From positions 3,241 to 67,240 of the forward strand of contig CAYYMZ010000002.1 of assembly GCA_964473025.1 (NCBI GenBank): 64,000 bases of DNA, in the 5' to 3' direction. Numbering within the stretch: the stretch's first letter is position 1; every line of letters begins with the position of its first letter. The DNA is from an uncultured Candidatus Saccharibacteria bacterium (GTDB lineage: Bacteria > Patescibacteriota > UBA1384 > DTJR01). Both the position numbers and the translations under genes were made by a program. Below the pieces are notes generated by a model. That model was not told where the DNA came from and searched no databases. It saw only the letters and a program-made list of their open reading frames with translations. Shown here piece after piece: positions 36,612 through 38,425 of the stretch.

Positions 36612-36630
36612 CCACCTGTTAAACAGGTGG
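36612..36630. promoter_or_regulatory. perfect 19-bp palindrome 'CCACCTGTTAAACAGGTGG' in the divergent secG / HTH-gene intergenic region (candidate operator)
   Basis: Seen directly, ~55 bp upstream of the HTH-protein gene start. Confidence 0.35.
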
Positions 36631-36685
36631 CAAATTAAAAAATGTGCAATAGCTACAGCAAAGTATTATATTTGACCGAACCCAT

Positions 36686-37381
36686 GTGTCATCCTATAAT
36701 AAGATTATGAGAAGAACCGATCATGATGAGGCAATAAGTTTGAGGAAAAAAGGATTCAGTTACAACGCTATTAATAGACGGCTTGGTATACCTAAAAGTA
36801 CCATTTCGAATTGGTTTTCAAAAACCGATTGGTCAAAAAAAATTGAAAACACTCTTTCTGAGAAACAAAAAATGGCTTCTTCCGCAAATGCCAAGAAAAT
36901 GGTGCTACAAAATAAAATTAATTTTAGAAAAAAAATTTCTAGCTTTAGAAATTCGGCAAAAAAAGAATATGAAATATTGAAAAACGATCCATTGTTAAAA
37001 GCAGGATTAATGCTCTATCTCGGGGAGGGCGATAACAAGTTCGACAATTCTTTAGTACGATTATCAAATATCAATCCTAAGATAATCAGTATATTTACAG
37101 TTTTTCTAAAACATGTTTGCAGGATTAATATTGAAAAAATACGGTCGACTATGATCTTATATAAGGATTTGGACGAGAAAGATTGTAAGAAATATTGGAA
37201 TCAATTTTTAGGTTTGCCTATTGAAAATTTCTATAAAACACAATATATTATAGGACGGCATAAGAAGCGAAAATTAAGCTATGGGATTTGCAACATTTCA
37301 GTCAGCGATAGGGAATTGAAAGAAAAGATCTTCGTTTGGACTGAAATGATATGCGAAGAATTAATTAATAAGCGGGTGTAG
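36686..37381 (+). CDS. HTH-domain protein ('RRLGIPKSTISNWF') with a C-terminal domain carrying a possible LAGLIDADG-like 'LYLGEGD' motif; its 3' end overlaps tRNA-Gly
   Basis: 231 aa. N-terminal HTH of the resolvase/transposase type. The stop lies 10 nt inside tRNA-Gly. Confidence 0.5.
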   Translation: MSSYNKIMRRTDHDEAISLRKKGFSYNAINRRLGIPKSTISNWFSKTDWSKKIENTLSEKQKMASSANAKKMVLQNKINFRKKISSFRNSAKKEYEILKNDPLLKAGLMLYLGEGDNKFDNSLVRLSNINPKIISIFTVFLKHVCRINIEKIRSTMILYKDLDEKDCKKYWNQFLGLPIENFYKTQYIIGRHKKRKLSYGICNISVSDRELKEKIFVWTEMICEELINKRV

Positions 37382-37446
37382 TTCAGTGGTAGAATGCGAT
37401 CTTGCCAAGATCGAGGTCGGCGGTTCGAATCCGCTCACCCGCTCCA
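37372..37446 (+). tRNA. tRNA-Gly (anticodon GCC), CCA encoded
   Basis: 'GCGGGUGUAGUUCAGUGGUAGAAUGCGAUC-UUGCCAA-GAUCGAGGUCGGCGGUUCGAAUCCGCUCACCCGCUCCA'. Confidence 0.88.
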
Positions 37447-37604
37447 GAAAAATGAATTTAAACAAAGCCGCCAAAAGCGGTCTTTATCCCACACCCTTTT
37501 ACATAAAAGGATGATGGGATTTCGCTCCCGAGATACATAGTAATAGGTTTATGATCCTGCGAAGGGAGCTTTATTTTTGCCCTAAACCTGATACAATTTT
37601 AGAT

Positions 37605-37964
37605 ATGGAAATACCCGAAGAAGCAAAAACTTTACTGGCAAAAGGCGATGTATATTTTGCAACAACTGACGGGCTTTGGCCCAACATCACTATCACCGCA
37701 AGTGGGGTTGTGATATCCGAAGACGAACTTTTGATTAGTGACTGCGCGATGACAAAGGCAAAAGAAAATATTCTAAAAAATCCAAATTGTTGCATTGAGG
37801 CGTATGACCCAAAAATCGAAGTTGGATATAAGGCATTCGGAAAAGCTACATACCATAGCGAAAAAGAAAAGGTTGACATCGCGAAAAAACGGCTTGAGGG
37901 AGAACCATTTGAACCTAAGGGTGCGGTTATTATAAAAATAGATAAAATTTTTAAAGTAGAATAA
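37605..37964 (+). CDS. pyridoxamine 5'-phosphate oxidase-like FMN-binding split-barrel protein (general stress protein 26-like)
   Basis: 'DVYFATTDGLWPNITI...' and a PNPOx-fold pattern. Start placed at 'MEIPEE' within ORF 37551..37964. Confidence 0.6.
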   Translation: MEIPEEAKTLLAKGDVYFATTDGLWPNITITASGVVISEDELLISDCAMTKAKENILKNPNCCIEAYDPKIEVGYKAFGKATYHSEKEKVDIAKKRLEGEPFEPKGAVIIKIDKIFKVE

Positions 37965-38038
37965 GGCCTGGTGGCGGAGTGGTTACGCAGCGGTCTGCAA
38001 AACCGTTCACGCCGGTTCAATTCCGGCCCAGGCCTCCA
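37965..38038 (+). tRNA. tRNA-Cys (anticodon GCA), CCA encoded
   Basis: 'GGCCUGGUGGCGGAGUGGUUACGCA-GCGGU-CUGCAAA-ACCGU-UCACGCCGGUUCAAUUCCGGCCCAGGCCUCCA'. Confidence 0.88.
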
Positions 38039-38043
38039 CACCC

Positions 38044-38295
38044 ATGTATTATGTATATACTTTAAAATGCGCTAATAATGATTTATATATTGGTAGTTGT
38101 AAGGATTTAAAAATAGGTTCGACCAACATATCATACGGAAAAGTAATATCAACTAGAGGAAAAAGACCTGTTAAGTTGGTTTATTACGAGGCATACTTAA
38201 GTAAGACGTATGCTTTAAAAAGAGAAAAAAGATTGAAAGAGCATAAGGCTAAGTCTGAATTAAAAGAACAAATAGGAATACATGGCCCGGCGTGA
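38044..38295 (+). CDS. small GIY-YIG nuclease-domain protein (UPF0213/YhbQ-like), inserted 5 nt after tRNA-Cys
   Basis: 'MYYVYTLKCANNDLYIGSCKDL...R...KREKRLKEH', a GIY-YIG core. 83 aa. Confidence 0.7.
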   Translation: MYYVYTLKCANNDLYIGSCKDLKIGSTNISYGKVISTRGKRPVKLVYYEAYLSKTYALKREKRLKEHKAKSELKEQIGIHGPA

Positions 38296-38302
38296 GCAGG
38301 TT

Positions 38303-38353
38303 TCACGCGAAGCGTGATCACGCTTCGCGTGACAATTCCGGCCCAGGCCTCCA
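38303..38353 (+). mobile_element. terminus of the tRNA-Cys-associated GIY-YIG element: 30-bp perfect inverted repeat, then 'GTGAC' + 19-nt copy of the tRNA-Cys 3' end (AAUUCCGGCCCAGGCCUCCA)
   Basis: 'tcacgcgaagcgtga|tcacgcttcgcgtga' followed by 'c aattccggcccaggcctcca', identical to tRNA-Cys from T-loop A58 to CCA. Two ~30-nt direct repeats ('...cagtgtaaact') follow at 38355..38420. Confidence 0.65.
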
Positions 38354-38425
38354 CTTCGTCCCTTTTGGGACTCAGTGTAAACTGTATTCGTCCTTCGAGG
38401 ATTCAGTGTAAACTAAATTTAAATT

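Follow-up and report, generated by a model that had tools for sequence, protein, structure and literature searches.

A tRNA-Cys locus of a Saccharibacteria genome read as a decayed GIY-YIG mobile-ORF cassette, with an independent double-hairpin insertion

A 64,000-nt stretch of a contig from an uncultured Candidatus Saccharibacteria bacterium (CAYYMZ010000002.1, positions 3,241 to 67,240; hereafter the window) carries, directly behind an intact tRNA-Cys gene, a small open reading frame (ORF) with a GIY-YIG nuclease domain, followed by a perfect 30-nt palindrome and a second copy of the tRNA-Cys 3' end. On balance, we lean towards reading this locus as a decayed copy of a free-standing GIY-YIG "mobile ORF" cassette found in tRNA genes throughout the Candidate Phyla Radiation (CPR), together with an unrelated 30-nt double hairpin (DH). 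This reading draws on the anatomy of the locus, the family-wide coupling of such ORFs to tRNA genes, the pseudo-tRNA fragments that flank them, the loss of conserved residues from the window ORF, and the precision and target bias of DH insertion.

Anatomy of the tRNA-Cys locus

tRNA genes were called with ARAGORN and Rfam, and ORF domains were assigned with Pfam. The region around tRNA-Cys contains the following features.

37551-37964, plus strand: PNPOx-like ORF, whose stop codon abuts tRNA-Cys without a spacer
37965-38038, plus strand: intact tRNA-Cys(GCA) with encoded CCA (ARAGORN, Rfam)
38018-38039, plus strand: repeat copy 1, 22 nt, from tRNA-Cys C56 to CCA plus 1 nt, 100% identical to copy 2
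38044-38295, plus strand: GIY-YIG-domain ORF, 83 aa, starting 5 nt past tRNA-Cys
38114-38134, plus strand: out-of-frame stretch of about seven codons within this ORF, from the DNA alignment with the homologue at locus L087
38296-38302, plus strand: GCAGGTT, remnant of a dead tRNA-Cys copy (5' strand of the T-stem plus T54-T55); the intact gene has GCCGGTT at 38011-38017
38303-38332, no strand: 30-nt DH, TCACGCGAAGCGTGA/TCACGCTTCGCGTGA, inserted in the dead tRNA-Cys copy after T55 and before C56 (TT/CAA site)
38333-38354, plus strand: repeat copy 2, 22 nt, the displaced 3' end of the second tRNA-Cys copy (C56 to CCA plus 1 nt)
38355-38417, plus strand: tandem duplication of a unit of ~31 nt (small hairpin plus TCAGTGTAAACT), between the tRNA-Cys remnant and the 111-aa ORF
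38426-38761: 111-aa ORF, 3' of the tandem duplication

Several of these features had been noticed in a preliminary description made from the sequence alone. The 83-aa ORF beginning 5 nt after tRNA-Cys is present, as are the perfect 30-bp inverted repeat, with two 15-nt arms of 100% complementarity, and the two direct repeats of ~30 nt, which are 79% identical (38361-38388 and 38392-38419). The tRNA-Cys 3' copy proved exact, as described, but longer than the 19 nt assigned to it: 38333-38354 equals 38018-38039 over 22 nt. When the palindrome is read as an insertion and excised, the duplicate extends to 29 nt with one mismatch (38011-38039 against 38296-38302 plus 38333-38354, read directly from the letters). 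The two 22-nt repeats enclose 293 nt with a single ORF, that of the 83-aa GIY-YIG protein. The layout is thus that of a mitochondrial mobile ORF (mORF): an intact tRNA-Cys, a nuclease ORF and a displaced 29-nt 3' remnant of tRNA-Cys, here split by the DH.

Neither the 22-nt exact repeat nor the perfect 30-bp palindrome would be expected in 64 kb, and shuffled sequences contain about zero double hairpins; these features do not constitute a chance pattern. The PNPOx-like ORF abuts tRNA-Cys in the window and at L087 alike, so zero-spacer packing of an ORF and a tRNA is not confined to nuclease-like genes in this lineage.

The 12-mer TCAGTGTAAACT is common to both direct repeats downstream of the remnant, and its exact form occurs nowhere else in the window. 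A repeated 31-nt tRNA flank at locus L027 is comparable with this duplication, and the tRNA 3' flanks of relatives are similarly duplicated. In the window, the duplicated unit could represent a tRNA 3' flank, by comparison with L027, or else be a repeat with a regulatory role.

A compensated frameshift in the GIY-YIG gene

The assignment of the ORF to the GIY-YIG nucleases, originally made from the sequence alone, holds under a profile hidden Markov model: Pfam PF01541 matches residues 1-70 with 35.8 bits against a cut-off of 22.6. Members of the family are 80-90 aa long. An NCBIfam search returned no name for this ORF or for the helix-turn-helix (HTH) ORF described below. The window protein keeps Y3, Y5, Y15, G17, E49 and E61. 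Arg25 and His29, each conserved in at least 90% of 35 aligned family members, are replaced, and the window reads LKIGSTNISYGK where the family alignment has LKxRxxxHNxG. The catalytic role of the GIY-YIG arginine is taken from published work on I-TevI and UvrC.

Alignment with the DNA of L087 accounts for the replacement. One nucleotide was lost near 38114 and one gained near 38134, a compensated -1/+1 frameshift that puts IGSTNISY where TRIGQHIN stood; the alternative frame there still reads RFDQHI. The element had been called intact, a description that no longer fits a gene from which the frameshift has stripped the near-invariant Arg25 and His29. As judged from these residues, the protein in the window is probably catalytically dead. 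At least ten public contigs from several samples encode an identical GIY-YIG protein in identical synteny, and the frameshifted ORF is therefore the fixed state of the population.

The GIY-YIG family and its tRNA partners

A protein search yielded 126 homologues of 80-90 aa, all with PF01541 and mostly from CPR bacteria (Patescibacteria). Scanning one genome per species gave 397 encoding loci, and the family counts below refer to the best 80 of these 397. A narrower alignment was used for the locus search, the 35-sequence alignment being too diverse for that purpose.

At 44 of the 80 loci, a tRNA gene on the same strand starts between -45 and +50 nt from the ORF stop, mostly within 10 nt or overlapping it. 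The partners span 12 tRNA identities, including Cys (23 loci), Ser (7), Ile (4), Leu (4), Trp (2), Met (2) and Glu (2), and the relatives coupled to them are mostly CPR bacteria. No adjacent tRNA was seen at 33 of the 80 loci, which belong to more distant homologues in Verrucomicrobiota and Saccharibacteria. In coupled loci, the 3' end of the ORF is welded to the 5' end of the tRNA, and the TAG of the D-arm often serves as the ORF stop codon. The usual order is ORF and then tRNA, so that the window shows its mirror image. This also fails to support the idea of an element that targets tRNA 3' ends, as most relatives have the ORF upstream of the intact tRNA and a 5' pseudo-copy further upstream.

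Partial copies of the partner tRNA flank the cassettes at dozens of independent loci. Exact 5' parts (positions 1-33 to 1-37, sometimes 1-48 or 1-69) lie upstream of the ORFs, and 3' parts (34-73) lie downstream of the intact gene. The junction between ORF and upstream pseudo-copy varies, falling in the D-loop at ~20, at ~41-48 or at 69; in the window it lies immediately after CCA. Relatives at 12 tRNA identities, with partial tRNA copies around them, together constitute a signature of mobility. The proposal of a homing-endonuclease-like mobile element is accordingly retained in part: the locus does show the anatomy of a nuclease ORF placed in a tRNA gene whose end is duplicated, whereas the intactness and the 3'-end targeting ascribed to it are not supported.

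The closest relative is L087, with 75% protein identity in the ORF and the same PNPOx-like neighbour. Its order is PNPOx stop codon, broken tRNA-Cys, intact tRNA-Cys allele, ORF, GCCGGTT and the same hairpin as in the window. The broken tRNA-Cys (positions 1-34) is of the window's sequence type and carries a 30-nt hairpin insert in its anticodon. It differs from the intact allele at 7 of 33 positions, including compensatory changes in the D-stem, and the T-arms also differ. At a further locus (L045), the acceptor strand of the last partial tRNA copy is a different one. In L088, a more distant relative, a tRNA-Cys stands without the cassette, at a locus that is not syntenic with the window. Empty tRNA-Cys sites were also sought by a metagenome scan for the PNPOx neighbour, which found no relatives. 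In the literature on GIY-YIG proteins with tRNAs in CPR bacteria and on COG2827, we found no description of this ORF-tRNA arrangement; a paper on tRNA introns in Patescibacteria covers group I introns only.

The double hairpin as an independent insertion

The 30-mer in the window consists of two 15-nt hairpins, TCACGC-GAA-GCGTGA and TCACGC-TTC-GCGTGA, without a mismatch. Homology to tRNA-Cys resumes 5' of it, with GCAGGTT against GCCGGTT in the intact gene, and in L087 the corresponding stretch, directly before the same hairpin, reads GCCGGTT exactly. Because tRNA homology continues beyond the DH, the T-loop is the landing point of the DH and not the edge of a nuclease element. The preliminary description had read "GTGA" followed by a T-loop-to-CCA copy as a junction; the GTGA is instead the 3' arm of an independent DH, which also occurs at other tRNA positions and at non-tRNA sites. 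Rfam searches of 31.5-38.6 kb at gathering and E-value thresholds returned tRNAs only, with no family for the palindrome or for the ORF-less elements described below. Elsewhere in the window, a hairpin-like run at 7318-7362 was considered and set aside as chance; it lies inside a 594-aa ORF, is AT-rich and contains mismatches.

The DH consensus is TCNNGC-NNN-GCNNGA, twice, and 56 units were counted in the 80 GIY-YIG loci. At 24 loci, a DH ends 0-75 nt ahead of the ATG. Where a DH lies in a partial tRNA, the intact tRNA next to it can stand in for the uninterrupted site. In about 25 such cases the flanks join seamlessly, with position n of the tRNA on the left and n+1 on the right, which means that the DH makes no target duplication. 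The commonest site in tRNA copies is 34/35, followed by 55/56, 12-14, 17-19 and 26/27. DHs are unlikely to be introns of functional tRNAs; the DH-bearing tRNA copies that were inspected are truncated and stand beside an intact copy.

Metagenome contigs were then scanned with the pattern of one DH subfamily, which matched at least 120 stretches (L199-L318); the counts that follow, including a total of 150 DH units, are among the matches listed. The unconstrained stem pairs are both Watson-Crick in 120 of 138 pattern matches against 8.6 expected, and in 4 of 110 when the same test was applied to viral contigs as a control. The fully degenerate DH pattern gave, on viral contigs, almost only non-hairpin chance matches in high-GC phages. 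The DH is not a phage feature. About one third of the 150 units lie within 500 nt of a tRNA, a GIY-YIG ORF is present in 16 of the 120 DH loci, and 78 of the 150 units belong to loci with neither. The target logo is palindromic, TTG/CAA, with T 56%, T 68% and G 62% to the left and C 54%, A 78% and A 61% to the right. This preference explains both the hot spot in the anticodon loop of tRNA-Cys (cTG/CAAaa) and the T-loop site in the window (gTT/CAAtt).

Protein-coding genes, essential ones among them, are also occupied, and 45 of the units listed lie within stop-free frames of at least 200 aa. The DH is in frame, as 10 stop-free codons, in genes for PNPase, topoisomerase I, IleRS, FtsZ, ProRS, GDH and a helicase (example DHs: L204 372-401 and 2598-2627; L211 6599-6628; L291 4417-4446; L295 2492-2521). 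In the GDH alignment, the DH-encoded segment SCEAGSGFARQ is present in 2 of the 17 closest homologues, which are 81-100% identical to the query. Comparison of ProRS with PDB structures was uninformative at the DH site, where the solved enzymes carry an editing domain. A separate 7-aa indel, AVPAGRQ, occupies columns 237-243 of the GDH alignment in 5 of 21 close homologues (P0219, P0229, P0231, P0232, P0233); it may be a single-hairpin (21-nt) relative of the DH.

We conclude that the DH is an independent, precise mini-insertion that is abundant in CPR metagenomes. A role as terminal repeat of the ORF element was considered and rejected, as the ORFs do not have single hairpins at their ends and the majority of DHs lie far from such ORFs. 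To our knowledge, no enzyme that mobilises it has been described.

Proposed history of the locus and rival explanations

If the window holds a decayed mobile-ORF cassette, its history can be sketched as follows. Cassettes would travel with part or all of the invaded tRNA gene, so that one intact tRNA would always be regenerated beside the ORF, and the displaced piece of the resident tRNA would persist as a pseudo-fragment on the opposite side of the ORF. In the window, this would have produced the intact tRNA-Cys upstream, the ORF 5 nt further on and a second copy reduced to its T-arm-to-CCA end. The DH would have landed later in the T-loop (TT/CAA) of this dead copy, where it would be harmless. 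By analogy with T4 SegB and the mitochondrial mORFs, an active family member would cut an ORF-free tRNA gene, and the break would be repaired from the ORF-bearing copy with tRNA sequence as the homology arm. The ORF might be expressed by read-through from the tRNA promoter and freed by RNase P cleavage. The element in the window would now be immobile, since the catalytic Arg and the conserved His were lost by the compensated frameshift.

Several points weigh against this history. Cleavage, target site and transfer are, for every family member, steps that we infer by analogy. All contigs of the organism share the arrangement, so no polymorphism is seen at the tRNA-Cys locus. Unlike the characterised GIY-YIG homing endonucleases, the protein is a bare catalytic domain of ~83 aa without a DNA-binding domain. 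The PNPOx-like ORF, which is no nuclease gene, ends exactly at tRNA-Cys in the same genome. The two tRNA-Cys 3' ends of the window are identical over 22 nt, and a foreign and a native tRNA are therefore indistinguishable there. Finally, 50 of the 56 DHs at the family loci lie within 400 nt of a GIY-YIG ORF, a possible functional link that this history treats as coincidence.

That last point is the starting position of a broader proposal, in which small GIY-YIG proteins would be trans-acting, structure-specific nucleases that mobilise DHs, DHs would drive the tRNA duplications, and both would belong to one system. In such a novel mobility system, the nuclease would cut hairpin or cruciform DNA at TTG/CAA-like sites, tRNA loops included, and thereby spread both the ORF-tRNA cassette and the DHs. 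We regard the proposal, in either form, as doubtful. The proximity of DHs to the ORFs, including those just ahead of the ATG at the 24 loci, agrees with it, as do several metagenome loci with DH-ORF-tRNA-DH units of ~390-420 nt. The two-fold symmetry of the DH on both strands and its minihairpins of the GCGAAGC type would suit a dimeric or structure-specific nuclease, and a domain-only protein without a sequence-reading domain fits the latter. As units of 10 stop-free codons, DHs might under this proposal colonise even essential coding genes. However, the co-location has a simpler account, namely that pseudo-tRNA-Cys copies offer the preferred TG/CAA target in neutral DNA. Furthermore, the 78 of 150 DHs noted above, among the matches listed, have neither a GIY-YIG ORF nor a tRNA in their locus, and we know of no GIY-YIG transposase, which also counts against a single system.

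An ordinary explanation would make the GIY-YIG gene a housekeeping gene of the UPF0213/YhbQ type, co-transcribed with the tRNA, and the 22-nt copy the debris of a local tandem duplication. We find this improbable. The arrangement is indeed fixed on all contigs of the organism, the distant homologues at 33 of 80 loci in Verrucomicrobiota and Saccharibacteria stand without an adjacent tRNA, and the PNPOx-like gene shows the same tight packing against a tRNA. A housekeeping gene does not, however, account for 12 tRNA partners among close relatives, for the partial tRNA copies around ORFs at dozens of independent loci, for two different tRNA-Cys alleles in L087 or for one relative without the cassette. 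Nor would its persistence be expected once the catalytic Arg and His had been frameshifted out.

ORF-less elements and other tRNA debris

A family of ORF-less elements of ~120-160 nt occupies the minus strand, with five copies in the window and one further copy outside it.

32371-32496, minus strand: ORF-less element
31962-32116, minus strand: ORF-less element
34355-34473, minus strand: ORF-less element
32990-33074, minus strand: ORF-less element
57425-57581, minus strand: ORF-less element
L037, 2831-2909: ORF-less element near a GIY-YIG locus

They come after tRNA-Val, tRNA-Phe, a Leu-type tRNA fragment and tRNA-Met, and one lies 1.2 kb beyond tRNA-Leu(GAG). Their core is GAAGGCCG-hairpin-GAGGCGGGGTCGCGAG-hairpin-CTTGTGAC, in short form GGGGTCGCGAG...CTTGTGAC, with covariation in both hairpins. 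Behind every element stands a copy of the neighbouring tRNA that spans C56 to CCA; one of these copies reaches a further 13 nt into the 3' flanking sequence (acgagataaaccc). With a covariance model of the core, R1, the five window copies reach 45-85 bits and the copy in L037 reaches 72.6 bits.

The GIY-YIG unit had been described as an intact, ORF-bearing relative of these elements, and could on that basis be their autonomous member, with a common T-loop insertion marked by "GUGA plus a C56-to-CCA copy". In each case the unit precedes a partial copy of the neighbouring tRNA that begins at C56 and has GTGA(Y) before it, both kinds occur within one 64-kb window, and the ORF-less family is also found near the GIY-YIG locus in L037. 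However, with filters off, 38271-38333 reaches 15 bits under R1, as much as a random match at 51547, and GTGA is all that the two share. That GTGA is the end of a DH, and DHs also sit at tRNA positions 12/13, 17/18, 26/27 and 34/35 and at non-tRNA sites. The C56-to-CCA copy does follow the GIY-YIG unit of the window, but its boundary was made by the DH insertion, and the tRNA homology that continues 5' of the hairpin (GCAGGTT) is at odds with a T-loop insertion of the GIY-YIG unit. Among 85 GIY-YIG and HTH loci, R1 detects one copy, that in L037. The relationship is thus largely refuted, we consider it very unlikely, and from their sequences the ORF-less elements and the GIY-YIG unit are different families.

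Least probable of all is that the locus is the remnant of a tyrosine-integrase integration into the tRNA-Cys T-loop with the GIY-YIG ORF as cargo: a direct repeat from T-loop to tRNA 3' end is the textbook attachment (att) geometry reported for tRNA-integrating elements and could represent residual attL/attR, but the 293 nt between the repeats hold no integrase, the T-loop boundary was produced by DH insertion, and relatives show 5'-half duplications with break points at ~20, 34, 41-48 and 69 and no single att core.

Other tRNA-derived sequences were observed in the window. A copy of the 3' end of tRNA-Leu(GAG) lies 1.2 kb downstream of the tRNA (34193-34280; region 32969-34280, minus strand), with a complete gene for a 236-aa VTT/DedA-domain protein between them (33385-34095; Pfam 80 bits), so that the region is in effect a repeat-bounded unit with a cargo gene. 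After both tRNA-Leu(CAG) and tRNA-Met (57181-57255) comes the same TTTAACGGGG, and after this a 3'-partial tRNA-like sequence that has a T-arm and CCA of its own. At 34752-34815, a tRNA match of 24.9 bits fell below the threshold. These regions look like further half-tRNA debris or another type of element.

34474-34538, minus strand: 3'-partial tRNA-like region after tRNA-Leu(CAG)
57085-57180, minus strand: 3'-partial tRNA-like region after tRNA-Met

A helix-turn-helix ORF ending in tRNA-Gly

Upstream of the tRNA-Cys locus, a second ORF runs into a tRNA gene.

36612-36630, no strand: perfect 19-bp palindrome CCACCTGTTAAACAGGTGG, between the divergent secG and HTH-ORF promoters
36672-36700, plus strand: sigma-70-like promoter candidate TTGACC-17-TATAAT, 11 of 12 matches, from the sequence
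36707-37381, plus strand: HTH ORF, 224 aa from ATG 36707 (public gene calls) or 231 aa from GTG 36686
37372-37446, plus strand: tRNA-Gly(GCC) (ARAGORN, Rfam), first 10 nt shared with the HTH ORF

The 231-aa HTH ORF (36686-37381) ends 10 nt inside tRNA-Gly, where its stop codon TAG lies, and the 19-bp palindrome stands upstream of it; both are as first reported. The promoter candidate would drive the HTH ORF and, by read-through, tRNA-Gly, and a similar TTGACT...TATAAT directly precedes the ATG of the HTH-family ORF in L088. The palindrome is not conserved upstream of the homologous ORFs in L088-L094; it is possibly an operator, or nothing.

The HTH ORF belongs to a CPR family of ~220 aa that usually abuts tRNA-Gly or tRNA-Ala. 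Members overlap tRNA-Gly by 15 nt in L090-L093 and end 2 nt ahead of tRNA-Ala in L094 and L095; in L088, the closest relative, tRNA-Gly lies on the opposite strand. No tRNA fragments were found beside the HTH-family ORFs in the relatives examined. The protein combines an N-terminal HTH with a C-terminal alpha/beta domain and an invariant LYLGEGD motif, of which Y111, E114 and G115 are invariant throughout the family. Its AlphaFold2 model (pLDDT, the predicted local distance difference test, 92.9) has a helix at 102-114 and then a mixed alpha/beta domain, and a Foldseek search of this model against the PDB gave no significant match.

A LAGLIDADG affiliation had been suggested for this ORF. Pfam, run on the window protein and 30 family members, gave HTH families only and no LAGLIDADG, leaving weak profile hints: a match to the second LAGLIDADG motif of I-DmoI in a PDB profile search (E 0.09-0.19), and an hhalign match to a protein in L094 with an HTH and a faint LAGLIDADG_3 (E 3.4e-4, probability 38%). 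An hhalign comparison of the HTH family with I-CreI, for which an approximate sequence was used, gave no match. Judged by sequence and layout, the HTH ORF would be a second, unrelated family with the same habit of ending in the 5' end of a tRNA, and possibly a LAGLIDADG-like nuclease.

The protein in L094 is itself of note. Its ORF of 341 aa (2475-3500; HTH_3 and faint LAGLIDADG_3), on a Wolfebacteria-type contig, ends 21 nt before tRNA-Ser (3521) and follows closely on the HTH-family ORF next to tRNA-Ala; an ORF at 2732-3643 of L090 was grouped with it. Given this second nuclease-like ORF, several unrelated nuclease-like families seem to use the position just upstream of a tRNA in CPR genomes.

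Significance and comparison with known systems

The chief interest lies in the family-wide ORF-tRNA pattern and in the DH, rather than in the dead copy of the window. If our explanation is correct, CPR bacteria, whose genomes are among the smallest of any bacteria, tolerate a guild of selfish nuclease genes on their tRNA genes, which repay the host with a spare piece of tRNA. It would also explain the litter of half-tRNAs at CPR tRNA loci, fragments that confuse annotation and tRNA counts. Additionally, a very large family of uncharacterised GIY-YIG proteins of ~85 aa gains a concrete and testable target. The DH, a by-product of this analysis, may matter more, given its TTG/CAA preference and its in-frame presence in the genes for PNPase, topoisomerase I, FtsZ, IleRS and GDH.

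Known systems resemble parts of these arrangements. The HTH ORF is like LAGLIDADG proteins with an N-terminal HTH in its succession of HTH, helix with LYLGEGD and alpha/beta domain, and unlike LAGLIDADG endonucleases in having no Pfam match, no PDB neighbour and no flanking tRNA fragments. Tyrosine-integrase elements in tRNA genes share with the window a direct repeat of the tRNA 3' part that flanks the insert and leaves the tRNA intact; the window differs in its 293-nt insert without an integrase, in the varying break points of its relatives and in a T-loop boundary made by the DH.

Other hairpin mini-elements include the GC clusters of yeast mitochondria, the Rickettsia palindromic elements and REPs (repetitive extragenic palindromic sequences), and the Rickettsia elements, like the DH, are generally known to lie in frame within protein-coding genes. 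A further parallel is offered by the mitochondrial double-hairpin elements (DHEs) of Allomyces, other chytrids and Schizosaccharomyces, which are reported to lack flanking duplications (Paquin et al. 2000, cited in PMC2800124 and PMC10085805). DHEs and the DH are both short, G+C-rich units of two adjacent stem-loops without flanking duplication, present or absent between close relatives and found at intergenic and intragenic sites. The DH differs in being bacterial (CPR) rather than organellar, in its palindromic TTG/CAA preference and in its fixed length of 30 nt, with two 15-nt hairpins of 6-bp stems and 3-nt loops; the likeness is one of form.

T4 SegB is a free-standing GIY-YIG homing endonuclease encoded in a tRNA gene cluster, which promotes the inheritance of itself and of flanking tRNA sequence by cutting the ORF-less allele (PMC2330249). 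The GIY-YIG cassettes resemble it in being free-standing, not intron-borne, and placed among tRNA genes. SegB is, however, a phage protein of ~220 aa with a DNA-binding region and has no partial tRNA duplications beside it, whereas the window ORF has lost the catalytic Arg. The similarity is one of position among tRNA genes, with no duplicated gene piece on the side of SegB (PMC2330249), and SegB supplies the precedent for the proposed mechanism.

The mitochondrial mORFs carry such a piece. At atp6 of Allomyces and at atp6, atp9, cox2 and nad3 of Glomus, function is preserved by a copy of the gene terminus that came with the insertion, and the host's original terminus survives next to the ORF (PMC3630166). 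The strategy of carrying a gene piece has so far been documented for protein-coding genes in fungal mitochondria (PMC3630166). Like the GIY-YIG cassettes, mORFs place an endonuclease ORF (LAGLIDADG or GIY-YIG) at a gene end and turn the displaced native terminus into a pseudo-fragment; in L087, moreover, the presumed inserted and native copies differ in sequence, which may be a further likeness. Many mORFs have no stop codon of their own and continue in phase into the host sequence; likewise, the ORFs described here stop at the TAG of the tRNA D-arm. The cassettes are further set apart by their place in a bacterial chromosome, by a tRNA target instead of a mitochondrial protein gene, by their bare domain of ~83 aa and, in most relatives, by an ORF that precedes the intact gene and a duplication that involves the 5' part of the target.

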